64,000 nucleotides of DNA from Verrucomicrobiota bacterium (GTDB lineage Bacteria; Verrucomicrobiota; Verrucomicrobiia; Opitutales; Cerasicoccaceae): contig JBCBUK010000005.1 in the NCBI GenBank assembly GCA_039818205.1, positions 232,065 through 296,064 of the forward strand, in the 5' to 3' direction. The notes beneath the pieces were generated by a model that saw only the letters and a program-made list of their open reading frames with translations, ran no database searches and was not told the DNA's origin. Of this stretch, positions 1-64,000 are shown piece by piece. The position numbers and the translations under genes are program-made. Position 1 is the stretch's first letter, and the number at the start of each line of letters is the position of its first letter.

Positions 1-940
1 GCGCCTGCTGAGACCAGCGGTCTAGCGCAATCCAGGTGGCATTGTGGCGAGTTTTCTTATTATCGATTTTCTCTGCCCACTCCAGTGCTTTCGAAACGCT
101 TTGTTGGTCGGCAAGCTGTCGCGTAAAACTCTCGGCAAGCTGCCCCTTCAGCTCGCTCTCCCGCATCTCCAGGATAACCATATCAGCATCGCCTGGATTC
201 TGATCAATGTATCGGAACATGACTGACCGGTAGATATCGAAGAGATCCTGGTTCAAGGGCTGGGTTTCAATCCAATCGAACACAGCACCAATATCCTGTC
301 GGGCCCATTCCTCGATTACCGCGGCAACGGCATGGTTACGGACAATACCTTCCGGCAGATGCTCAGCCATCGTGATGACATCCTGTGGCGGATTGTTCGA
401 CGCGAGCCCAGAATAGATTGCAGGCAGCATGTAAGCATCGGTCGATAGGTCTACAAAGTGTTGATTCACCCAATCGATTGCATCGGTTCCGTAAGCCCGC
501 GCGTATTCTTTCAAGGCAATCTGGAGCAAGTCAGAACGGAGTGCGCCGTCTTCAAGCCCAGAAACATATTCAAGCGATGCTTCAGGGTCTCGCTGAGACC
601 ATTCAGAGACCAACACCTGGGAAACGGCACGAACCATAGTGGGGTCTCGGCCATTAATCGAGCGACCAAGGAGTCGCGAAAACTCTCTCGAGTCAACCGC
701 ATCAAAGAGACCAGAGAGATCGACCACAGCATCAACCTGGGTCGCGGGCTCCGCTTCCTGGCTCGGGTGGGCGTCAAGCGCCGATGCTGAATCAACGCTC
801 CCCGAGGAACTCGACACATATTTCGGCGACATCGGATCGGCGCCGGGCTTACCGCCAATGTACTTTGCGATGAGGTAGCCTAGGAGCGCACCAACGCTAA
901 GGGTGAATAGATATCGAAGGATTACAGACTTCATGGCCAT
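1..940 (-). CDS. Hypothetical membrane-anchored alpha-helical repeat protein (partial, runs off the left edge)
   Basis: Not in the ORF track. Manual translation from ATG 940 (or 934) is open to position 1: MAMKSVILRYLFTLSVGALLGYLIAK, then repeated W-x3-DP/A-x2-W units (EWSQRDPEASLEYV, EEWARQDIGAVFDWI, ALEWAEKI, DRWSQQA). Confidence 0.8.
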   Translation of the reverse strand, partial: MAMKSVILRYLFTLSVGALLGYLIAKYIGGKPGADPMSPKYVSSSSGSVDSASALDAHPSQEAEPATQVDAVVDLSGLFDAVDSREFSRLLGRSINGRDPTMVRAVSQVLVSEWSQRDPEASLEYVSGLEDGALRSDLLQIALKEYARAYGTDAIDWVNQHFVDLSTDAYMLPAIYSGLASNNPPQDVITMAEHLPEGIVRNHAVAAVIEEWARQDIGAVFDWIETQPLNQDLFDIYRSVMFRYIDQNPGDADMVILEMRESELKGQLAESFTRQLADQQSVSKALEWAEKIDNKKTRHNATWIALDRWSQQA

Positions 941-50880: not shown

Positions 50881-52659
50881 CTAGCTGCCTGCTAGGCTGG
50901 ACATATACCGCCGCCACGACTGTAGATGGGTAATCTCAGTGGAACCTTCCACAGCGCAAGCCTCGGCGATAAAGCCCATGCACTCGACATCGCCCTTAAG
51001 GAAAACACGACCGAGACCGAGCGGAGCGCCGATGCCCTCCAAGAAACTCCCAAGCGTTTCACGCGGCAGCTGCCAAACCTCAACAGCGATGCTACTCCCG
51101 TGCATGGAATCTCTAACCAAAGCGGGCCGTCGGGGCTCGCCTTCGAGGGCAAACAACCGGTACATCGGCAAGGTCTCCGTCTTACGAACAAACCGACCGT
51201 TCCGCTCTAGCAGCTGAAAATTCAGTGGCATATCTTTCATGTGCGCACCACAAACCACGATCGGAACCAGACTATCCAAATTCTTTGATTCAGCAATGAC
51301 TTCCGGTGGGCTTAACTTACTCGTACCCATGGTCAAACCTGTCTTTGCGTGCAGCTCACCCGCAATCTCCAACAGGTCAAGATCCCTACCCGAACCGGCA
51401 AATAGTGTTACACCATGCGGAAGGTTGTCCTTACGAAACGCTACTGGTGTTGCAACTGCAGCAAGGTCAAAAAGGTTCATGAAATTCGTGTAGTAACCCA
51501 ACTCAGAATTCAGCGCGAGAGGCTCGTTGAGAACTTGCTCAGTCGTGTAGACGGTGCCGCATGTCGGAGTCATGATTCCATCAACTTGTTCTAGAACCTC
51601 GTCACCCAATCGCTTCAAGTCTTTTAGTTTATACTCAGCCCGAAAATAGTCGACCGCTGACGCCCGGTTACCCTGCTCAATGATCTGACGAGTGACCGGG
51701 TGGAGAATGTCTGGCCGTTCGGCGAGAATACTTTCTAACACAGAGTAACGTTCAGCCAACCAAGGCCCCTCATACAGCAAGCGAGCGGCATCTTTGAAGG
51801 GCTCAAAGTCAATCTCAACGACGTCATAACCAAGTTCGCGAACTAAATCGATTGCCTTGTCAAAAACGATCTTGGTCTGTTCATCACCGAAAAACTCCAA
51901 CTGCTCCGATTTCGGTATCCCAATTGATTGTCGGCGACTACCAGCCTGCAGCGAAATGCTCACCGCATAAGGATCTTCGGCATCGTAGCTTGCAGCAACT
52001 TCCAAGACCGCTTGAGCATCAGCATTTGAAAGCGCAAATATTGAAACGCAATCCAAACTGCGACAGGCGGGGACTAATCCCGTCGTGCTCAAAAGACCTC
52101 GACTTGGTTTTAGTCCAACAATGTTATTCAAAGAAGCCGGGATTCTTCCCGATCCCGCCGTATCAGTCCCAAGTGCAAACGAAACCAAGCCTTTGGACAC
52201 CGCGACCGCAGAACCAGAACTGGATCCGCCCGGAATGTATCGTGGATCAAACGGATTCGATGGAATGCCGTAGGGAGAGCGAGTTCCCACCAGGCCCGTC
52301 GCGAACTGATCAAGATTCGTTTTACCGATCGGAATCGCTCCGGCATCAATTAGTTGTTGAACAACGTAGGCGGAATTGGTCGGAGTGTATGCATAGTCGG
52401 GACACGCGGCAGTTGTCGGAACGCCTGCCAGATCTAGGTTATCCTTAACTGCAAACGGTATACCATAGAGCGGGTGTGTTTCCGGTGACTTGTCTTTCAG
52501 CTTTTCAACATAGACGGCTATTTCCTCACGTGAGAGGACGTAGATCCAGATCGCGGGATCCTCAACTCGAATGCGGTCCAAGACACAGTCAAGCACCGCT
52601 TGCGGATGGATCTCCCGATTGGCGTATTGCTTAATCAAGTTATCAATTGAAATATTCAT
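50881..52659 (-). CDS. atzF: Allophanate hydrolase
   Basis: LYGIPFAVKDN, GKTNLDQFATGLVGTRSPYG, GGSSSGS, GTDTAGSGR, C-terminal VCGAHM domain; start ATG 52659. Confidence 0.93.
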   Translation of the reverse strand: MNISIDNLIKQYANREIHPQAVLDCVLDRIRVEDPAIWIYVLSREEIAVYVEKLKDKSPETHPLYGIPFAVKDNLDLAGVPTTAACPDYAYTPTNSAYVVQQLIDAGAIPIGKTNLDQFATGLVGTRSPYGIPSNPFDPRYIPGGSSSGSAVAVSKGLVSFALGTDTAGSGRIPASLNNIVGLKPSRGLLSTTGLVPACRSLDCVSIFALSNADAQAVLEVAASYDAEDPYAVSISLQAGSRRQSIGIPKSEQLEFFGDEQTKIVFDKAIDLVRELGYDVVEIDFEPFKDAARLLYEGPWLAERYSVLESILAERPDILHPVTRQIIEQGNRASAVDYFRAEYKLKDLKRLGDEVLEQVDGIMTPTCGTVYTTEQVLNEPLALNSELGYYTNFMNLFDLAAVATPVAFRKDNLPHGVTLFAGSGRDLDLLEIAGELHAKTGLTMGTSKLSPPEVIAESKNLDSLVPIVVCGAHMKDMPLNFQLLERNGRFVRKTETLPMYRLFALEGEPRRPALVRDSMHGSSIAVEVWQLPRETLGSFLEGIGAPLGLGRVFLKGDVECMGFIAEACAVEGSTEITHLQSWRRYMSSLAGS

Positions 52660-52708
52660 TGCTGAAATCGGATTCACAAATACTTGGGAGATCTGGCTGG
52701 GAACGCAA

Positions 52709-55700
52709 TCACTCCGGCTTGATACCAACTAACTGCTGGCCTGTTCGCACCGGCGAACCCTCCTCAGTCAGAATCTGCGCAACTTTACCGCTAACGGTCG
52801 CCTGCACCGAAATCTCCATCTTCATTGCCTCGACAATCAGGATAGTTTGCCCGGCTTCGACAACTTCATCTACGCCCACGACAATCTTCCAAACGTTGCC
52901 ATTGATATGGCTGCAAACTGCTTCTACGCCATCAGGAAGGTCGGCTTCTTCGGGCGGCTCGGGCTCAAATGAGTCTGTCACGGCATTCTGGCCAGCCGCT
53001 TCCCACCGTTCCCGCTCCTCTTCGAATGCTTTCTGTTGTCGCGCCTTAAACGCGGCAATGGACTCAGCGTTTTCATCCAGAAACTCGTTGTACTCCTTCA
53101 GGCTAAAGTCCTGCTCCTCGATTTTAACCTCAAACGTGCCAGCGTGGAAGTCACGTCGCATCTCGACGAGTTCTTCCTCTTCGACCGGATAGTATCGCAC
53201 CTGGTCGAAAAACCTAAGAAGCCAGGGTTTTCCTTCCTCGAAGGGTCCCGTCTTGAGATAGCGATTCCAAATGGGAACTGTTTGACCAACGAGCTGGTAT
53301 CCACCGGGGCTATCCATCCCATAGATGCACATATAGACGCCGCCGATCCCCACCGTACCTTCGGCCGTCCAAGTGCGAGCAGGATTATACTTGGTCGTTA
53401 GCAAACGGTGTCGCGGATCAACCGGCACCGCCGCCGGCGCGCCCAGGTAAACGTCACCAAGCCCCATGACCATGTAGCTCGTACTGAAAACGATATCTTT
53501 CACCTCATCGACTGATTCAAGACCGTTGATGCGACGCATAAATTCGATATTGGACGGGCACCACGGAGCATCCTTACGGACAGATTTCTCATACTTGCGA
53601 ACTGCAGCCTGAGTCATCTCATTGTTCCAGCTCATCGGCAGATGAAGGACACGGGTCTTGATCACCATTTCCTCAATTGGTGGAAGCTCTTTCTCCGCCG
53701 CAACCAGCAGGTCCAGAAGCGCCTGCAGCCGAATCACCCGTGAGTCGTAGTGGAGCTGCAATGACCGAACGCCTGGTGTGATATCGATCAGGCCCGGGAT
53801 CGGATTCTTGTCGATCCAATCCATCAAGGCGTAGATGCGGAAGCGGAAATTCAAGTCGAGAACGATGGGACCGTATTCGATTAGGAGATACTTGTCTCCG
53901 CACGGCCGGTAGTTGACCTCCACTGGCAACTCTCCCTTCGGCAGAGTCACCGCCACGCAGGGCTCACGCTCCAACCCATCAGTCAGCTCATTAACGACCG
54001 CCTGATCGAGTTGTTGAACCCCGGCGTCCTGCAGCTCCTCCAGCGTATTGGCCGCTACCTGGGTGACGCAGGTGAAGCGAATGGAATCACCCGGACGTAA
54101 TTGACCAATCATCCAAAGGTCTGCTTGCACGATCGTTACTGGGCAAACGAACCCACCCAGGCTTGGTCCATCGGGTCCAAGTATAATCGGCATGTCCCCG
54201 GTAAAATTGATCGCGCCAATCGCATAAGGATTGTCGTGAATATTCGACGGGTGGAGACCTGCTTCGCCACCATCTTTACGCGCCCACTGCGGCGTACTTG
54301 GGGCAATCAACCGGATGCCGGTCCGGGCAGAATTATAGTGGACCTCGAACGTTGATGCCAAAAATGTATCGATATCCTCTTCAGTAAAGAAATCGGGCGC
54401 GCCATGGGGACCGTAGGTTACCCGGATCTCCCACTCATGATTATACTGGGGAATGAAGTCCCCCGGCAATTGGCGTGGGACGGTCTCTCCGACCTGATCG
54501 GGTTCCAGGAGGTGCAACACATCCCCTGGCAAGAGAGTCCGTCCACCATGGCCACCAAAGTTACCCATTGAGAAGGTCGCCTGACTGCCGAGATAAAAGG
54601 GAACATCAAAGCCACCGGCAACAGCCAGATAGGCGCGGCAACCCACAGAGGTAATCTTACCGAGCTTTAACACCGAGCCTGCCGAAACTGTCAACGTTCG
54701 CCACATCTGGACGGGCAACCCATCCAAGTCTGCCTCGATCGGAGCACCCGTGATAGCGATGCTCGCGTCTTGGTTGAACTTGAGCGTCGGCCCAATCAAA
54801 GTGATTTCGAGAGCCGCGATTCCTTCCTCATTCTGCACCAGGCGATTGGCCAACCGAAAAGAAAGGTTATCCATTGGCCCCGATGGCGGAACCCCGATAT
54901 CCCAGTACCCGATTCGGCCAGGGTAATCTTGAATGCTCGTTTGCGTTCCCGGGGTAATGACATCGACCCCGGTAGTCGGATACGAGAAGTCTTTAAGAAA
55001 CGCGGTTGTGATCGTGCCTTGTTTGAAATCAGGCGTCGCCACGATTCGACTCAAGTATTCTAGATTCGTTTCGATCCCGTGCAATGCGGTGGCATCCAAC
55101 GCTTCACTCAAAGAGGCGATGGCCGCTTCCCGCGAGTCCGCCTTCACGATGAGCTTAGCGAGGAGTGGATCGTAGTTTGGTGTTACCTCGGTTCCCGTGG
55201 CGATCCAGGTGTCGCAACGCACGCCTTCTGGAAACACAACCTCTGAGAGCACGCCCGAAGACGGCTGGTAGTTCTTACGGGGATCTTCAGCGTAGATCCG
55301 AACTTGAATCGAGTGGCCAGCGGTTGTGACAGAATCAACCCCTGCGGTCGGATCCTCCCCCCCAGCCAAGGTCAACATCCATTCGACGAGATCGACGCCC
55401 GTAACTTCTTCGGTCACCCCATGCTCAACCTGCAAGCGCGTATTCACCTCGAGGAAGTAGAACTCCTCGGTATCCACATTGACCAAAAACTCGACGGTTC
55501 CCGCCGATCGATACGCAATGGATGACGCGAGTCGCTGCGCGGCCTCGGTAAGGCCCGCCCTTAAACTGTCGGAAATGTTCGGTGCAGGTGTTTCTTCAAT
55601 CACCTTCTGGTTTCGGCGCTGTGCTGAACAATCTCGCTCGCCCAACGTAACGACGCCCCCCTGCCCGTTTCCAAAGATCTGAACTTCAATATGGCGAGCC

Positions 55701-56311
55701 CGGCCGACGAACTTCTCCAAGTAAATACCCGCCTGCCCAAAGTTAGTCATGCTTAGGTGCTCCACCTGCTCATAAGCCGCTCGGAGACTGCCGGGCTCCT
55801 CGCAAATGCGCATCCCGATGCCGCCCCCACCAGCGACGCTCTTAAGCATGACCGGATAGCCAATCTCGTCCGCCCGCTCCAAAGCTTGGTCCGCCGACTC
55901 CAGCAAACCCGTTCCAGGCAACATCGGAACATTGGCTTTCGATGCCAGTTCACGGGCCGTGTGTTTTAGGCCGAACTGATCAATTTGAGAAGGTGTCGGC
56001 CCGATAAAGCGAATCCCTCGATCTTCACAAGCCTGAGCGAAGTGTAGGTTCTCACTCAACAAGCCATACCCCGGATGGATTCCATCAACCCCGGCGTCCT
56101 CTGCAATCTGCAGGATCTTCTCGATATTTAGATAGCTCTCAGCGACGGATGCCGGGCCCACTTCATACGACTCGTCGGCCATATGAACATGTGGCGTATG
56201 CCGGTCGGGCTCGGAAAAAATAGCAACTGTCGGTATCTCAAGCTTCCGACAGGAGCGCATGATGCGGCAGGCAATCTCACCACGATTTGCGATCAAAACT
56301 TTCTTCAACAT
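52709..56311 (-). CDS. uca: Biotin-dependent urea carboxylase (Asn type)
   Basis: [51 protein letters not shown]; between urtE and atzF. Confidence 0.9.
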   Translation of the reverse strand: MLKKVLIANRGEIACRIMRSCRKLEIPTVAIFSEPDRHTPHVHMADESYEVGPASVAESYLNIEKILQIAEDAGVDGIHPGYGLLSENLHFAQACEDRGIRFIGPTPSQIDQFGLKHTARELASKANVPMLPGTGLLESADQALERADEIGYPVMLKSVAGGGGIGMRICEEPGSLRAAYEQVEHLSMTNFGQAGIYLEKFVGRARHIEVQIFGNGQGGVVTLGERDCSAQRRNQKVIEETPAPNISDSLRAGLTEAAQRLASSIAYRSAGTVEFLVNVDTEEFYFLEVNTRLQVEHGVTEEVTGVDLVEWMLTLAGGEDPTAGVDSVTTAGHSIQVRIYAEDPRKNYQPSSGVLSEVVFPEGVRCDTWIATGTEVTPNYDPLLAKLIVKADSREAAIASLSEALDATALHGIETNLEYLSRIVATPDFKQGTITTAFLKDFSYPTTGVDVITPGTQTSIQDYPGRIGYWDIGVPPSGPMDNLSFRLANRLVQNEEGIAALEITLIGPTLKFNQDASIAITGAPIEADLDGLPVQMWRTLTVSAGSVLKLGKITSVGCRAYLAVAGGFDVPFYLGSQATFSMGNFGGHGGRTLLPGDVLHLLEPDQVGETVPRQLPGDFIPQYNHEWEIRVTYGPHGAPDFFTEEDIDTFLASTFEVHYNSARTGIRLIAPSTPQWARKDGGEAGLHPSNIHDNPYAIGAINFTGDMPIILGPDGPSLGGFVCPVTIVQADLWMIGQLRPGDSIRFTCVTQVAANTLEELQDAGVQQLDQAVVNELTDGLEREPCVAVTLPKGELPVEVNYRPCGDKYLLIEYGPIVLDLNFRFRIYALMDWIDKNPIPGLIDITPGVRSLQLHYDSRVIRLQALLDLLVAAEKELPPIEEMVIKTRVLHLPMSWNNEMTQAAVRKYEKSVRKDAPWCPSNIEFMRRINGLESVDEVKDIVFSTSYMVMGLGDVYLGAPAAVPVDPRHRLLTTKYNPARTWTAEGTVGIGGVYMCIYGMDSPGGYQLVGQTVPIWNRYLKTGPFEEGKPWLLRFFDQVRYYPVEEEELVEMRRDFHAGTFEVKIEEQDFSLKEYNEFLDENAESIAAFKARQQKAFEEERERWEAAGQNAVTDSFEPEPPEEADLPDGVEAVCSHINGNVWKIVVGVDEVVEAGQTILIVEAMKMEISVQATVSGKVAQILTEEGSPVRTGQQLVGIKPE

Positions 56312-56316
56312 TTCAC

Positions 56317-57048
56317 TTAAACAGTAAGGTATTGGCCGACGATCTCATCAGACAGGTCGGCAATCTCTCCATCGGAAACAATCATGCCCCGATCCATTAT
56401 ATAAAAGCGGTCGCTCACCGCCTTGGCAAAATCCAGATATTGTTCGACCAGCAGGATACTCATTTCGCCCGACTCTTTCAGGAGTCGAATCGTATCCTCA
56501 ATCTGGTCAATAATCGACGGCTGAATCCCCTCGGTGGGCTCATCGAGGATCAGCAACTTGGGACAGGTAAGCAACGCACGAGCGATAGCCAACTGCTGCT
56601 GTTGACCACCACTTAGAACGCCGCCCTTGCGGGCACTCATTTCCTTGATGACCGGAAACAATTCGTAGACGAAATCGAGCTTCTCTCGAGCCTTATCGCC
56701 ATGAACAATGATCGCGGTTTGCAAATTCTCCCGGACCGTTAAGGTCGGGAAAATATGGCGCCCTTGAGGCACGTAGGCGATTCCCTTACGCGCCCGCGTT
56801 TCGGTAACATCTTTCTCAATCCGATCGTCGAACAGTTTTATCTCACCCTGGGTTGAATCAATAATGCCCAAGATGGATTTCAAGGTCGTCGTCTTGCCGA
56901 CACCATTACGTCCCATCAAGGCAACGACGCTACCGGGTGGAATATCGAGATCGATCCCACGAAGGATGATCGACTGATCGTAATAGGCCTTCAGACCACG
57001 AACCGAGAGGACCATGTCGGTTGCAGGGGCTGTCTCTGAGGCTGTCAT
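56317..57048 (-). CDS. urtE: Urea ABC transporter ATP-binding subunit
   Basis: MGRNGVGKTT, YVPQGR, LSGGQQQQLAIAR, LDEPTEGIQPS. Confidence 0.92.
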   Translation of the reverse strand: MTASETAPATDMVLSVRGLKAYYDQSIILRGIDLDIPPGSVVALMGRNGVGKTTTLKSILGIIDSTQGEIKLFDDRIEKDVTETRARKGIAYVPQGRHIFPTLTVRENLQTAIIVHGDKAREKLDFVYELFPVIKEMSARKGGVLSGGQQQQLAIARALLTCPKLLILDEPTEGIQPSIIDQIEDTIRLLKESGEMSILLVEQYLDFAKAVSDRFYIMDRGMIVSDGEIADLSDEIVGQYLTV

Positions 57049-57872
57049 GATGCATCCTCCTCATCGCGGCTGTGTTGGCGCCCAAGGTAAACCTCAACGA
57101 CTTTCTGATCAGCTTGAATCTGATCAATCGTCCCTTCTCTCAAAATTGAACCTTGGTGGAGGACGGTTACTGTGGTCGCAATCTGCCTTACAAAGTCCAT
57201 GTCGTGTTCAATAACAATCAAACTGTGGTCACCCGCTAGGCTAAGCAGGAGTTCGCCCGTTCGTTCCGTTTCCTCGTCCGTCATTCCGGCAGCCGGTTCG
57301 TCCACCAACAGCAGTTTCGGATCTTGAGCAAGGAGCATTCCAATCTCTAGCCATTGCTTTTGCCCGTGAGAAAGCGAGCCGGCAACCCGATCACCTTGAT
57401 CGACCATCCGAATGGTCTCCAGTATCTCATGGATGCGTGCTTTATCTGCAGCTGATTCCCGGTAGAACAAAGTCGCAAATACGCCCCGATCCCGATTGAG
57501 CGACATCATCAAGTTTTCGTAGACGCTATGGTGCGAGTAGACGCTTGGGGTTTGGAATTTTCTACTGATGCCCAGCCGATTGATTTCGTACTCGCGCATA
57601 TGGTCGAGCTTGATGCTGTGATCGGGCCCAAACTCGATGGTTCCCGAATCTGGCCGAGTCCGGCCCGTAATGAGATCGAGAAAGGTACTTTTGCCAGCGC
57701 CATTTGGACCAATGATTGTGCGAAGCTCGCCGCGGTCGATGTAGAGGTTGAGATCGTTGATGACTTTGAATCCATCAAAGCTCTTATTAAGCCCCTCAAC
57801 CGTAAGAATGAACTCCCGCTTATCATGGGCTTCCTCGGCGCCGTCATTTTCGTTGATAACAACTTCAGTCAT
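57045..57872 (-). CDS. urtD: Urea ABC transporter ATP-binding subunit
   Basis: IGPNGAGKST, RKFQTPSV, LSHGQKQWLEIGMLL, VYLGR. Confidence 0.92.
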   Translation of the reverse strand: MTEVVINENDGAEEAHDKREFILTVEGLNKSFDGFKVINDLNLYIDRGELRTIIGPNGAGKSTFLDLITGRTRPDSGTIEFGPDHSIKLDHMREYEINRLGISRKFQTPSVYSHHSVYENLMMSLNRDRGVFATLFYRESAADKARIHEILETIRMVDQGDRVAGSLSHGQKQWLEIGMLLAQDPKLLLVDEPAAGMTDEETERTGELLLSLAGDHSLIVIEHDMDFVRQIATTVTVLHQGSILREGTIDQIQADQKVVEVYLGRQHSRDEEDAS

Positions 57873-57877
57873 GTCAT

Positions 57878-59005
57878 CTAGGCAGAAGCGGGTTCATCTT
57901 TTGGCATCGATTTAAAGCGATGCTGGTTCTTCTTCCACAACTCGCGGAGCTGCGCGGGCAGACCAACAATTCCGTTGGGCATAAAGAGCACCACGAAGAC
58001 GAATAATGCGCCCAGGATGATCAACCAGTAATCCGGATAATGGTAGGTGGTATAACTTTTTAACCAATTGACGAAAACCGCACCGATGACCGGCCCGACG
58101 ATCGTCGCCCGCCCACCTACTGCAACCCAAACGACAATCTCAAGTGACTTGCTGGGACGCATCTCCTCCGGGTTAATGATCCCTACTTGGGGTATGTATA
58201 GCGCACCGACAATTCCAGCCATAATACCCGATACCACAAAGATAAAAAGCTTGTAGCTGGTCGTCGAATAACCCGAAAAGCGAACCCGATTCTCACTATC
58301 CCGAATCGCCTGCTGGATGCGGCCAAACTTCGTTCTTAGCAGCCACCAATTGAACAGCATGCACGAGGTGACGTACATGGCGGTTAACAAATAGAGGCCC
58401 CGCTGAGTACCAGGATCGAAGACATCATGGCCCAGGACTGTTTTGAAATCAGTAAAGCCGTTATTGCCACCGAAGGTAAACTCATTGCGGAAGAACAGCA
58501 GGCAGGCAGCATAGGTCAACGCTTGCGTAATAATCGCGAAATAGACGCCCTTGATCCGCGCGCGGAATGCCAGGAAACCGAAGACCAACGCCAAGATTCC
58601 GGGCACCAAGATAACAGCGGCGACCGCAACCCAGATACTGTAGAATGGAACCCAATGCGAAGGGAGCTCCGTATAGCCCATGAAGACCATAAAATCGGGA
58701 AGCTCACTTTTGTAGGCACCTTCTTCGCCAATCATTAACATGAGGTGCATTCCCAGTGCATAGCCGCCAAGCGCAAAGAACAGACTTTGCCCGAGGCACA
58801 AAAGCCCCGTATACCCCCAAAGCATATTGAGAGAGATTGCCAGCGCGGCATAACACAAATACTTGCCCCACAGATTTAGCTGAAAATCGCTAACGTGAAG
58901 AAACGACTCGGGAGTCATGGTCACGTTGAGAGCTGGCAGCAAGAACATCACTCCTGCCGTGAGAGCAATCCCAATCAAACGTCGCTGATCTTCGCTAAAC
59001 TTCAT
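57878..59005 (-). CDS. urtC: Urea ABC transporter permease
   Basis: [42 protein letters not shown]. Confidence 0.92.
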
Positions 59006-59022
59006 CGCAAATTATCCATGGA

Positions 59023-60711
59023 TTAGTCGAGACTCCTGCTTCGACTGGGAAAGAGCCCGCCGGGCTTCCACTGCAAGAAAATGATTATAATAACCAAGAC
59101 CGTAATCCGCCCCATCACTGGTCCCAATGCTGGTTGAAGCGCTTGATCCGTCACCCCGATACCCAGCGCAGACAACACGGTCCCAAGAATATTTCCGACT
59201 CCTCCGACCACCACGACCATGAAACTGTCGACAATATAGCTCTGGCCAAGATTGGAACCGACGCTGCCGATCTGTGAAAGAAACACGCCCGCCAAACCGG
59301 CAAGCCCGGAGCCAAACGCGAAGGTGATCATCCGGGTTCGGTCGATACGAATTCCCATCGCAGAAGCCATCTCCGGATCTTGCATCACAGCGCGAATGGA
59401 AAGCCCCAAAGGCGTCCTGGTCATCAAGAGCCAGGTGCCCACCACAATGATCACCGCGAAGAAAATGACGAAGATCCGGTTATACCCAAAGGTGATGTCC
59501 AAGATTTCGATATTGCCCAATAGCCATGAGGGCGAGTTTACCTGACGATTCGCAGCCCCAAAAACCAGACGAAAGCCTTGCTGCAGAATCAAAGAGATAC
59601 CCCAGGTTGCAAGAAGTGATTCCAGAGGACGCTTGTATAAAAATTGAATAACGCTTCGTTCCAGAATCAATCCAGCCAGTGCTGCAGTAACGAAGGAAAA
59701 CGGTATCGCGAAAAGAAAATAGGTTTCTAACGCCAGCTTAGAGCTATCGATGATCGATGCGAAAAATTGTTGGCTCAAGAAAGCGCTGTAGGCTCCTACC
59801 GCAATCATCTCACCATGCGCCATATTGATGACGCCCATCAGACCAAAGGTAATGGCTAGACCAAGCGCCACGATGACAAGGACTGCACCCAGGCTTAATC
59901 CGCGAAAGCAAGTACCGATAAAGTCGATCTTAGCCAAATAGCTATTGATCGATTCAATTGTTTTGTCCAAGGCTGCGCGCTCGTCAGCATTGAACTCGAG
60001 CTCGGTCTGCCCTTCGTCCAACTCTGCCTTTAGGTTTCCCAGCGCACTCAAACCGGCAAGAGAATTCATTTTCTCAAGAGTCGCAATCGCGGCCATCAAT
60101 TCCTCCCGAGACCCATGTGCCAAGTGGCTGACGGCAATGCCCTCTTCCAGTGCCTCGAGGACAGCGGGATCTTTCTCAGTCTCCTTGAGCGCTAACAAGT
60201 CCCTCAGATAGTCTTGATTCTGTTTCAACCCCAGCTTAAGCGCGGATTCAGCGCGGACATCGGGGTTCGCGGAGTTGAGGCCGACAAGATCAGTTAAGCG
60301 GGAAAAAAGTTTTCGGGCTTTTCGAGCTGGACGGGCCTGGTCCAGGTTCTCGGGATCAACCGTGACTGGTTCACCTAGTTCGTTAACCAGGACTTCACCA
60401 GTCTCAACAACTATAGCTGATCGAAGCGCCGGAGCGTCCTCATCCTCGGGGACGTAGATCGGAATGCGTTTTGATTCCGGGTCAAAAATGTAGATATCGC
60501 CTCGTTTCCAAGCTTCGAGATAGTTAGTAACAATCTCTGTTTCACCCGTTGCGGCTAGTTCCTCGACCAAAGCGACTTGATCGTTACTGCTGGCGAGTAT
60601 TGCTTCCGTTAAGATGGCTCTAGCGGCATCTTCGTCGGCTTGCGCGGCGTATGGCGCAATGCCCAGCAACACCAATAGCACCCAACATATTGTCTTTCGG
60701 AGTGGCATCAA
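59023..60711 (-). CDS. urtB: Urea ABC transporter permease with N-terminal helical extension
   Basis: GLAITFGLMGVINMAHGE, LYKRPLESLLATWG, YIVDSFMVVVVGGVG. Confidence 0.92.
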   Translation of the reverse strand: MMPLRKTICWVLLVLLGIAPYAAQADEDAARAILTEAILASSNDQVALVEELAATGETEIVTNYLEAWKRGDIYIFDPESKRIPIYVPEDEDAPALRSAIVVETGEVLVNELGEPVTVDPENLDQARPARKARKLFSRLTDLVGLNSANPDVRAESALKLGLKQNQDYLRDLLALKETEKDPAVLEALEEGIAVSHLAHGSREELMAAIATLEKMNSLAGLSALGNLKAELDEGQTELEFNADERAALDKTIESINSYLAKIDFIGTCFRGLSLGAVLVIVALGLAITFGLMGVINMAHGEMIAVGAYSAFLSQQFFASIIDSSKLALETYFLFAIPFSFVTAALAGLILERSVIQFLYKRPLESLLATWGISLILQQGFRLVFGAANRQVNSPSWLLGNIEILDITFGYNRIFVIFFAVIIVVGTWLLMTRTPLGLSIRAVMQDPEMASAMGIRIDRTRMITFAFGSGLAGLAGVFLSQIGSVGSNLGQSYIVDSFMVVVVGGVGNILGTVLSALGIGVTDQALQPALGPVMGRITVLVIIIIFLQWKPGGLFPSRSRSLD

Positions 60712-60748
60712 GTTTCAGGTGGGGTGATCGAAATGTGGGATGAGCTTG

Positions 60749-60785
60749 GGCTCTCGGTAGAAATAACCGGTTTCCACCGAGAGCC
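60749..60785 (-). other. Intercistronic hairpin between urtA and urtB
   Basis: GGCTCTCGGTAGAAA-taaccgg-TTTCCACCGAGAGCC; 15-bp stem with one G-U pair in the minus-strand RNA. Confidence 0.7.
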
Positions 60786-60814
60786 TTCGCTTCAATATAT
60801 CCCAATGCAGACCA

Positions 60815-62089
<1,275 letters not shown>

Positions 62090-62122
62090 GATGGTTTAGG
62101 ATTTAGATAATTAGTGAGTTGA

Positions 62123-62974
62123 CTAAAAATCGACTCCGACCCCGATGTTTCCTGTTACGAAGGAATTCTTGGGGTTAGGAACAGTATCGTTGTTGGTGTA
62201 GTAGTAGGTAAGGCCGCCATGGATATTCCAAGCGCCGTACTCCTCGCCAATAAATGGCAACGGAACGCTGGCTTGAGGGCCAACTGCCAAGTAGGTGAAG
62301 CCACCTTCAAGGCCATAGTAGTTGTCCGTATTGAATGCCACGTCAGCACCCAGCGATACGTCGACACCATAGAGGTCCCAGCCTTCGGAGATGCCGAGAA
62401 CAAAGACCGCTCCGCGGCGTTGCGCACCGTTCACGTCAACACGATTGTGAACGATGAGAGTTGGATTCAGGAGGACGTCATAGCTGACCATGAAGTCCAA
62501 GATGCGCTCAACATCGCCCGCATAGATCCACTCCTGGTAGGTCACCTCAAAGGTCCAACCACTGATCGAGTAGCCCAAACCAGCCCACACATCAACTTCT
62601 TGGATGTCATCGCCGATACCCGACGTAGCGATACCGTTGATATCAAACCAGATTCCGCCAAAGGCATACAGACCATTGTCGAAATCAAATGTTACCGAAG
62701 CGGATGGATTAAAGATAAGGTTGTCCCAGCTCTGACCCTCAGCCCAGACATCAAAGCCATAGGAGATAAAGTGAGAGTTGAAGTCGAAGCTGATCGAGCC
62801 GCTAACAGCAGACCCAGCGTCTACTTCTTCGACGGGAGCCGAACTGGCCATCGCAGGATCACCGGTCAATGGCTCAGCAATCTGGGCTGATGCAGCCCCC
62901 ATGCTCGAAAGCAAGGCAATGGAAGAGCAGAAAATCCACTTAGTAGATTTATGTTTGTAGCATTCAATATTCAT
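62123..62974 (-). CDS. Putative outer-membrane beta-barrel/porin heading the urt operon
   Basis: Signal peptide, alternating aromatic/amphipathic strands (EVDVWAGLGYS, FEVTYQEWIY), terminal GNIGVGVDF; loosely resembles the TorF/Gcw_chp family. Confidence 0.6.
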   Translation of the reverse strand: MNIECYKHKSTKWIFCSSIALLSSMGAASAQIAEPLTGDPAMASSAPVEEVDAGSAVSGSISFDFNSHFISYGFDVWAEGQSWDNLIFNPSASVTFDFDNGLYAFGGIWFDINGIATSGIGDDIQEVDVWAGLGYSISGWTFEVTYQEWIYAGDVERILDFMVSYDVLLNPTLIVHNRVDVNGAQRRGAVFVLGISEGWDLYGVDVSLGADVAFNTDNYYGLEGGFTYLAVGPQASVPLPFIGEEYGAWNIHGGLTYYYTNNDTVPNPKNSFVTGNIGVGVDF

Positions 62975-63014
62975 TAGTCGTTAGGCGTTTAGTTGGATGT
63001 TTTCTTGTATAGCT

Positions 63015-63028
63015 GATTGTATACAATC
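63015..63028. promoter_or_regulatory. Perfect 14-bp palindrome GATTGTATACAATC, candidate GntR operator
   Basis: TTGTATACAA core typical of FadR-subfamily sites; flanked by CTTGTATA half-sites at about 63004 and 63028. Confidence 0.72.
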
Positions 63029-63035
63029 TTGTATA

Positions 63036-63051
63036 AGCAATCCACATGCCA
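63036..63051 (-). promoter_or_regulatory. Sigma-54 (-24/-12) promoter of the porin-urt-uca-atzF operon
   Basis: Minus strand TGGCATGTGGATTGCT, close to the consensus TGGCAC-N5-TTGCW. Confidence 0.8.
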
Positions 63052-63188
63052 AGCGGACCAACTCACCGGAAGGTAAAGATAGCTGTCAAATTCTGGCCAA
63101 AACCAGTGCTTTAATTGCCATTATTAACAACATCGAAGGCAATTGATGGATTTGATGAATTCCACTCATACACCTACCTTCATCCGAC

Positions 63189-63221
63189 AAAAGGAAGGCC
63201 ACCCTCGCGAAAGGGTGACCT
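63189..63221 (-). terminator. Probable terminator after the second porin copy
   Basis: Minus strand AGGTCACCCT-ttcgcg-AGGGTGGCCT-TCCTTTT. Confidence 0.65.
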
Positions 63222-63331
63222 AATTTGCCTATCAGCACAACTGACCGTGCCGAGAGGTCCAGCTGGCTAACCACACCAGCTAGTTTTAGTTATTAACCAA
63301 AAATCTGGTTTTGAGTTCTAAGAACCGCAGG

Positions 63332-64000
63332 TTAGAAATCAACTCCGACGCCGATATTTCCAGTCACGAAGGAATTCTTCGGATTAGGAACGGTATCGTT
63401 GTTGGTGAAGTAGTAGGTAAGGCCGCCATGGATATTCCAAGCACCGTACTCCTCGCCGATAAATGGTAGTGGGACGCTCGCTTGCGGGCCAACTGCCAAG
63501 TAGGTGAAACCACCTTCAAGACCGTAGTAGTTGTCGGTATTGAATGCAACATCGGCTCCGAGAGAAACATCGACACCATAAAGGTCCCATCCTTCAGAAA
63601 TACCGAGAACAAATACGGTTCCGCGGCGTTGCGCACCATTCACGTCAACACGGTTGTGAACGATGAGGGTTGGATTCAGGAGGATATCATAGCTGACCAT
63701 GAAGTCCAAAATGCGCTCAACGTCGCCCGCGTAAATCCACTCCTGGTAGGTCACCTCAAAGGTCCATCCGCTAATGGAATAACCTAAGCCGGCCCACACA
63801 TCAACTTCTTGGATGTCATCGCCAATACCCGACGTAGCGATACCGTTGATATCAAACCAGATTCCGCCAAAGGCGTATAGACCGTTGTCGAAATCAAATG
63901 TTACCGAAGCGGATGGATTAAAGATAAGGTTGTCCCAGCTCTGCCCCTCAGCTTCGACTTCAACTCTCACTTTATCTCCTATGGCTTTGATGTCTGGGCT
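63332..64000 (-). CDS. Second near-identical copy of the putative porin (partial; 45-bp segment inverted at the window edge)
   Basis: 63332-63952 aligns with 62123-62743 at an offset of 1209 bp, with three amino-acid differences seen; the frame is open to 64000. Confidence 0.75.
   Translation of the reverse strand, partial: SPDIKAIGDKVRVEVEAEGQSWDNLIFNPSASVTFDFDNGLYAFGGIWFDINGIATSGIGDDIQEVDVWAGLGYSISGWTFEVTYQEWIYAGDVERILDFMVSYDILLNPTLIVHNRVDVNGAQRRGTVFVLGISEGWDLYGVDVSLGADVAFNTDNYYGLEGGFTYLAVGPQASVPLPFIGEEYGAWNIHGGLTYYFTNNDTVPNPKNSFVTGNIGVGVDF

Follow-up and report, generated by a model that had tools for sequence, protein, structure and literature searches.

The flipped segment at the right end of the window, i.e., the whole 64,000-nt stretch of DNA analysed here (C5:232065–296064), lies inside the second of two tandem porin genes and is very probably not genome sequence. 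It is best explained as an assembly tip, covering 63953–64000, that derives from a fold-back chimeric read. The outer-membrane β-barrel gene is duplicated in tandem, and its second copy is most likely ordinary and uninverted. Three origins had been offered for the flip from the letters alone, namely a possibly switchable micro-inversion, a template switch, and an assembly artefact in a repeated gene, and the evidence favours the third of them. The features discussed below are collected in Table 1.

Inverted match at the end of the contig

A script check showed that 63953–63997 is the exact reverse complement of 62744–62788. When the flanks are included, the perfect inverted match comprises 53 nt (62741–62793 versus 63948–64000), which is far beyond chance. 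The pentamer TCAGC is found at 62739–62743 and again at 63948–63952, and GCTGA is found at 62789–62793. The sequence-only reading had reported an exact 45-bp reverse complement with TCAGC/GCTGA flanks, and the script check and the 53-nt match both bear this out. Its statement that the flip introduces no stop codon also holds: the frames S-FDFNSHFISYGFDVW-AEG in copy 1 and S-PDIKAIGDKVRVEVE-AEG in the flipped version are both open. Thus, the observation stands as far as the inverted match is concerned, but not as an inversion with two junctions, since 63952/63953 is the sole junction recorded. Of the two junctions expected of a recoding inverton, only this one is present, and the contig stops inside the second arm.

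The right end of the window is also the end of the contig. C5 is 296,064 nt long, hence base 64000 is its final base; a contig ending here, which the sequence-only reading had named as an observation that would speak against an inversion, is indeed what was found on checking. C5 lacks the last 2 nt of the second TCAGC/GCTGA arm, and the base after them, 3 nt past the contig end, is the first at which a micro-inversion (GCTGA-T...) and a fold-back (GCTGA-G...) would differ.

The manner in which the assembly breaks was assessed by measuring, at each of its 132 contig ends, the longest terminal stretch that recurs in the genome. This stretch is exactly 77 nt at 35 of the 132 ends; none was detected at 70 ends, and odd lengths of 15–59 nt occur at a minority. 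The 35 ends with exactly 77 nt are the mark of de Bruijn assembly at K=77, with contigs broken at repeats. The right end of C5 has a recurring terminal stretch of 53 nt. It is located 56 nt beyond the last copy-specific base, which is C at 63944 in copy 2 versus A at 62735 in copy 1, and 48 nt beyond the junction. An end placed 48 nt past the junction and sharing 53 nt is not an ordinary repeat break, and it is accordingly a dead-end branch shorter than K. The tip at this contig end is therefore 48 nt long, or 53 nt with the microhomology, in either case below K.

Table 1. Positions of the porin copies, the parts of the inverted match, and fold-back ends on other contigs of the assembly
Sequence	Feature	Position	Strand	Remarks
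Window	Porin copy 1, complete, 283 aa; predicted outer-membrane β-barrel	62123–62974	-	ORF
Window	Porin copy 2, genuine part: 206 C-terminal codons and stop	63332–63952	-	Open frame; 5′ part on C15
Window	Stretch of 95 nt in copy 1, probably identical in copy 2, longer than K	62736–62830		Bounded by copy-specific bases 62735 and 62831
Window	TCAGC, 45-nt segment and GCTGA in native orientation in copy 1	62739–62793		Encodes the conserved motif FDFNSHFISYGFDVW
Window	TCAGC, 5-nt microhomology at the putative chimeric junction, common to the true and opposite-strand paths	63948–63952		Start of the 53-nt inverted match
Window	Flipped piece, read as a dead-end assembly tip	63953–64000		Reverse complement of 62741–62788; contig end; shorter than K=77
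C38, left end	Inverted copy	1–59		Reverse complement of 198–256
C54, right end	Inverted copy	846–894		Reverse complement of 602–650
C62, right end	Inverted copy	497–544		Reverse complement of 396–443; 7-nt inverted repeat GGCTTTG/CAAAGCC, 53-nt loop
C51 (1391 nt)	Whole hairpin contig			653-nt terminal inverted arms around 85 nt
C52 (1029 nt)	Whole hairpin contig			314-nt arms around 401 nt
C7, right end	Terminal palindrome of 26 nt			13-nt arms, hence outside the eight ends counted in the text

The remaining half of copy 2

A DNA search of the genome located the segment at a sole other site, the final 40 nt of contig C15, which is likewise a contig end. C15 ends with ...GGCTCGATCAGCTTCGACTTC...TATGGCTT, in which the segment is uninverted. 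This end carries the 5′ part of a porin gene on the plus strand, with its own signal-like N-terminus (MTEMKVSQTK...), and it reads ...GGCTCGATCAGCTTCGACTTCAACTCTCACTTTATCTCCTATGGCTT, again in the uninverted form. The last difference between C15 and copy 1 lies exactly 77 nt before the end of C15, and these final 77 nt match copy 1 exactly; a stop 77 nt after the last private base is the signature of a repeat break. Furthermore, 77-mers that include a C15-private base reach 34–35 nt into the uninverted segment.

A tblastn search of the genome with copy 1 returned four porin parts: two C-terminal ones, both located on C5, and two N-terminal ones, one belonging to copy 1 and the other to C15. The only further match is the flipped scrap itself. 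Since the genome holds just two N-terminal and two C-terminal porin parts, C15 in plus orientation most likely joins the reverse complement of C5, rc(C5), a join that is also based on coherent gene content. The end of C15 contains genes for a formamidase, a urea/amide-type ABC transporter, and a NikR-like regulator, and the C5 side contains the two porins, urtABCDE-like genes, a urea carboxylase, and an allophanate hydrolase, which fits the join. In the loci of three relatives, no NikR-like gene was detected within ~1.4 kb upstream of the porin, and synteny in the relatives speaks neither for nor against the join. The real copy 2 would thus be uninverted, with its 5′ part at the end of C15. 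This end provides the true continuation of the gene on another contig, except for 10 nt of copy 2, equivalent to 62744–62753, which occur uninverted in no contig.

The same count of gene halves bears on the idea of a genuine genomic fold-back, in which copy 2 would be truncated and lead either into its own inverted duplicate, as a large palindrome, or into a third partial copy in inverted orientation. A continuation GCTGA-GGGGCAGAGC would fit the tip just as well, as the contig ends before the deciding base. Such an arrangement is nevertheless highly improbable: it would leave the porin 5′ half on C15 without a 3′ half, in a genome with two of each, and the assembly contains no third copy of the segment. 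Moreover, a genomic fold-back would be expected to be covered by many reads, with a path rejoining the graph 77 nt past the junction instead of ending at 48 nt.

An uninverted copy 2 would also account for the positions at which both contigs stop. Copy 1 and copy 2 mismatch at 62735 versus 63944, and a C15-type contig first differs at 62831. The two copies are taken to be identical over 62744–62753 as well, and the resulting 95-nt exact repeat exceeds K=77, which explains why C5 and C15 both end here. An inverted copy 2 would leave longest exact matches to copy 1 of only 42 nt in direct and 55 nt in inverted orientation, both below 77 nt. Without a repeat of at least 77 nt, no contig break would arise, and the assembler would be expected to run C5 into C15. 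These considerations do not agree with the headline of the sequence-only reading, an in-frame inversion within the porin gene, because the half of copy 2 on C15 is uninverted and tied to a C15-private base, and because a break of the contigs requires that 77 nt or more be repeated exactly. A fixed, clonal micro-inversion that recodes the first β-strand of copy 2 in frame is what the deposited contig spells out at 63948–64000, yet it is extremely improbable. The end of C15, the sole other porin 5′ part, links its private base to 34–35 nt of uninverted segment, and the inversion would abolish the repeat of at least 77 nt, so that C5 and C15 would have assembled together.

Contigs from sequencing runs were also compared. 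Three runs of one study were listed; run X1 contained 0.94 of the sampled words, and runs X2 and X3 contained next to none. X1 is possibly the source sample and is then not independent, and the comparison was made with contigs, not reads. Over 62000–64000, seven pieces of X1 contigs were found, covering 62000–63764; no piece fell on 63765–64000, which includes the junction. X2 and X3 contigs gave no piece anywhere in 62000–64000. One X1 contig spans 62526–62830 unbroken and with no differences, which would be somewhat unexpected if an equally deep, fixed inverted branch existed, contigs being simplified. Two X1 contigs begin at 62801. One of them corresponds to the upstream region of copy 1; the other shows 6 differences, and its loose end is the reverse complement of C15 sequence. 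This topology loosely fits two collinear copies with a common segment, with the same proviso that contigs are simplified. One might guess that, in the X1 contigs, the path of copy 2 was collapsed into that of copy 1 as a bubble.

Fold-back ends in the assembly and the probable origin of the tip

The right end of C5 is not the only one of its kind. A reverse-complement copy of the terminal 30-mer lies within 2 kb at 8 of the 132 contig ends, as compared with 1 of 20,000 random interior 30-mers; hence, fold-back ends recur at other contig ends of this assembly (Table 1). The arms of C51 and C52 were found nowhere else in the assembly, and both contigs probably arose as fold-back artefacts in the same library. 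The true continuation of the right end of C62 is the left end of C3, and that of the right end of C7 is the right end of C3. With both continuations present on C3, such tips are demonstrably off the main path.

Other types of shared ends occur as well. At six ends (C1 left, C5 left, C9 left, C10 left, C22 right, and C40 right), the terminal 28–59 nt exactly copy stretches of other contigs; several of these copies are on the other strand or a short way within the boundary of a 77-nt repeat. These six ends may be chimeric tips, or they may be rare alternative junctions, e.g., mobile-element empty sites. The pairs C11/C21 and C24/C63 are plain short overlaps.

The junction in C5 is located at a short inverted repeat with a nearby source on the opposite strand, TCAGC and GCTGA flanking 45 nt. 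A likely route to the tip begins in library preparation, where a single strand of copy 2 would fold back at TCAGC...GCTGA, or pair with a sister fragment. The folded strand would then be filled in, giving a hairpin-type molecule A-TCAGC-X-GCTGA-rc(A). The other strand of this molecule would read A-TCAGC-rc(X)-GCTGA-rc(A), which corresponds to C5 up to its final base. One or a few such reads would introduce 77-mers that leave the true path directly after TCAGC. If a read holds fewer than 77 nt past the junction, its 77-mers leave the true path and never rejoin it, which results in a tip; here, the chimeric 77-mers would end after 48 nt, before rejoining the graph. The true path, for its part, would enter the 95-nt exact repeat, longer than K=77, where extension would be blocked, and the tip would be kept as the contig end. 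We infer both the chimeric read and its exact chemistry.

In the predicted minimum-free-energy DNA fold of the native segment, TCAGC pairs with GCTGA, but the stem is weak (−4.9 kcal/mol, z = −1.27); of 200 shuffles, 26 equalled or exceeded the stability of the native TCAGC...GCTGA segment. The predicted stem would permit a fold-back without arguing for one. A purely graph-made origin, in which no chimeric read takes part, was also considered and rejected, since 77-mers across 63952/63953 need a read or a contig from an earlier K, and a repeat of just 5 nt could not merge paths at any of the K values used.

These findings call for caution in genome scans. Exact inverted copies of 40–60 nt at short-read contig ends near repeats are a recurrent artefact of assembler or library, and they can mimic in-frame recoding inversions. 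Such cases can be settled cheaply by asking whether the end of the window is a contig end and what the K of the assembly is.

Porin genes and comparison with known systems

The genuine part of copy 2 is 97.6% identical to residues 75–283 of copy 1 (tblastn), and the DNA identity between the tandem copies is roughly 87–90%. The porin matched no family in Pfam (E up to 0.01) or NCBIfam (E up to 1), including PF09694. In the Atlas, it is grouped with clusters named 'outer membrane beta-barrel porin', which are commonest in Verrucomicrobiota. An Atlas structure search gave TM values of 0.84–0.85 to clusters bearing Gcw_chp (PF09694), the Atlas model having a pTM of 0.86; in the cluster with a TM of 0.84, PF09694 is present in 47% of members, as judged with an Atlas predicted model. 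The label 'porin' therefore appears reasonable for the predicted product. The start of copy 1 is uncertain (62903–62974, - strand), as the Atlas protein begins at residue 25, read as M. The N-terminal 30 residues differ strongly between copy 1 and the C15 copy, and the mature parts are nearly identical.

Clear orthologues of the porin were identified in 3 of the 30 relatives searched, all single-copy and with 40–62% identity; the match in a fourth relative (E = 2e-4) was left out of the orthologue set. In this genome and in the three relatives with a match, urtA is located directly downstream of the porin. The tandem ~280-aa β-barrel may represent a candidate urea or short-amide porin family that lacks a curated model. 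If C15 joins rc(C5), the two contig ends (C15:94980–102979 and positions 50881–64000 of the window) would form one combined region for the utilisation of urea and short-chain amides, split by the assembly. The joined locus would add a formamidase, a second urea/amide-type ABC transporter, and the NikR-like regulator to the porins and urea genes of C5. Within the same locus, the UrtB-like permease (59023–60711, - strand) is 562 aa long, with BPD_transp_2 only at residues 269–545; for the 268 residues that extend it at the N-terminus, Pfam gave no match (E up to 1e-5).

At the flip site, the motif S[FL]DFN[ST]HFISYG[FA]DVW is kept in all three orthologues; the stretch that the flip would replace is among the best conserved in the protein. 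This point also concerns a further explanation, namely that a minority of cells carries a real 45-nt micro-inversion, arising either through an unknown invertase or when replication switched templates at the 5-nt repeat, and that the few reads from these cells formed the tip. The recorded junction is exactly the one that a TCAGC/GCTGA micro-inversion would give, and the flip is in frame and stop-free. In addition, intragenic recoding invertons exist in other bacteria, according to the available portions of the report by Chanin et al. ('Intragenic DNA inversions expand bacterial coding capacity', 10.1101/2023.03.11.532203). Yet, this explanation is unlikely. Given K=77, several reads from inverted cells would be expected to yield a complete side path to C15-specific sequence and not a 48-nt dead end, and the same assembly has fold-back ends demonstrably off the main path. 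The flip would destroy the motif shared by the three orthologues. Neither repeats of recombinase length nor an invertase gene was found at the site: a recombinase domain is present in 0 of the 13 flanking ORFs scanned, and the 5-nt repeats are short relative to the 11 positions of one inverton repeat described in those portions of the report. If the minority inversion were real, a recombinase-independent template-switch flip would recode, and probably disable, the first β-strand of one of the tandem porins of the urea locus, and the tip of C5 would be a trace of population heterogeneity. The fold-back tip remains the preferred reading.

As a protein, the porin resembles the putative barrels of the Gcw_chp (PF09694)/TorF-like type in its length of ~280 aa, its N-terminal signal-like segment, and its C-terminal ...GVGVDF, and in the Atlas structure search it aligns with Gcw_chp-bearing clusters at TM values of 0.84–0.85. 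Unlike these barrels, it has no sequence match in Pfam or NCBIfam.

Quasipalindrome or template-switch mutation, known from E. coli, can produce an inverted spacer by strand switching where short inverted repeats surround that spacer. Such inversions are rare and are not expected to be visible in a culture sequenced at tens-fold depth. The C5 end differs from a demonstrated template-switch inversion in that the second junction is absent.

Genuine intragenic recoding invertons, as presented in the available portions of the report by Chanin et al. (10.1101/2023.03.11.532203), had both orientations validated by PCR, 49 predictions being unconfirmed, and the repeat in thiC comprises 11 positions. 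The case described here is similar in that a flip between inverted repeats lies within a gene, recodes it in frame, and affects an outer-membrane protein. It differs in that the invertons of those portions are supported by both orientations and junctions, through reads or PCR, and have longer repeats, whereas a single junction, a contig end, and 5-nt repeats are found here.

The closest parallel is provided by the fold-back read artefacts of PMC10908179. The accessible part of that article describes chimeric reads in sonicated libraries, in which the sequence between natural inverted repeats appears reverse-complemented, and attributes them to partial single strands that pair and then undergo end repair; the libraries were human capture libraries, and the filter applied required inverted repeats of 8 bp or more. 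The C5 tip shares with the artefacts described there the junction at a short natural inverted repeat and the reverse-complemented intervening sequence. It departs from them in the inverted repeat of 5 nt, which is below their filter of at least 8 bp, and in the human capture origin of their libraries. In C5, the putative artefact would take the form of a kept de Bruijn tip, with one junction, at a contig end, shorter than K, and recurrent at other ends of the assembly.
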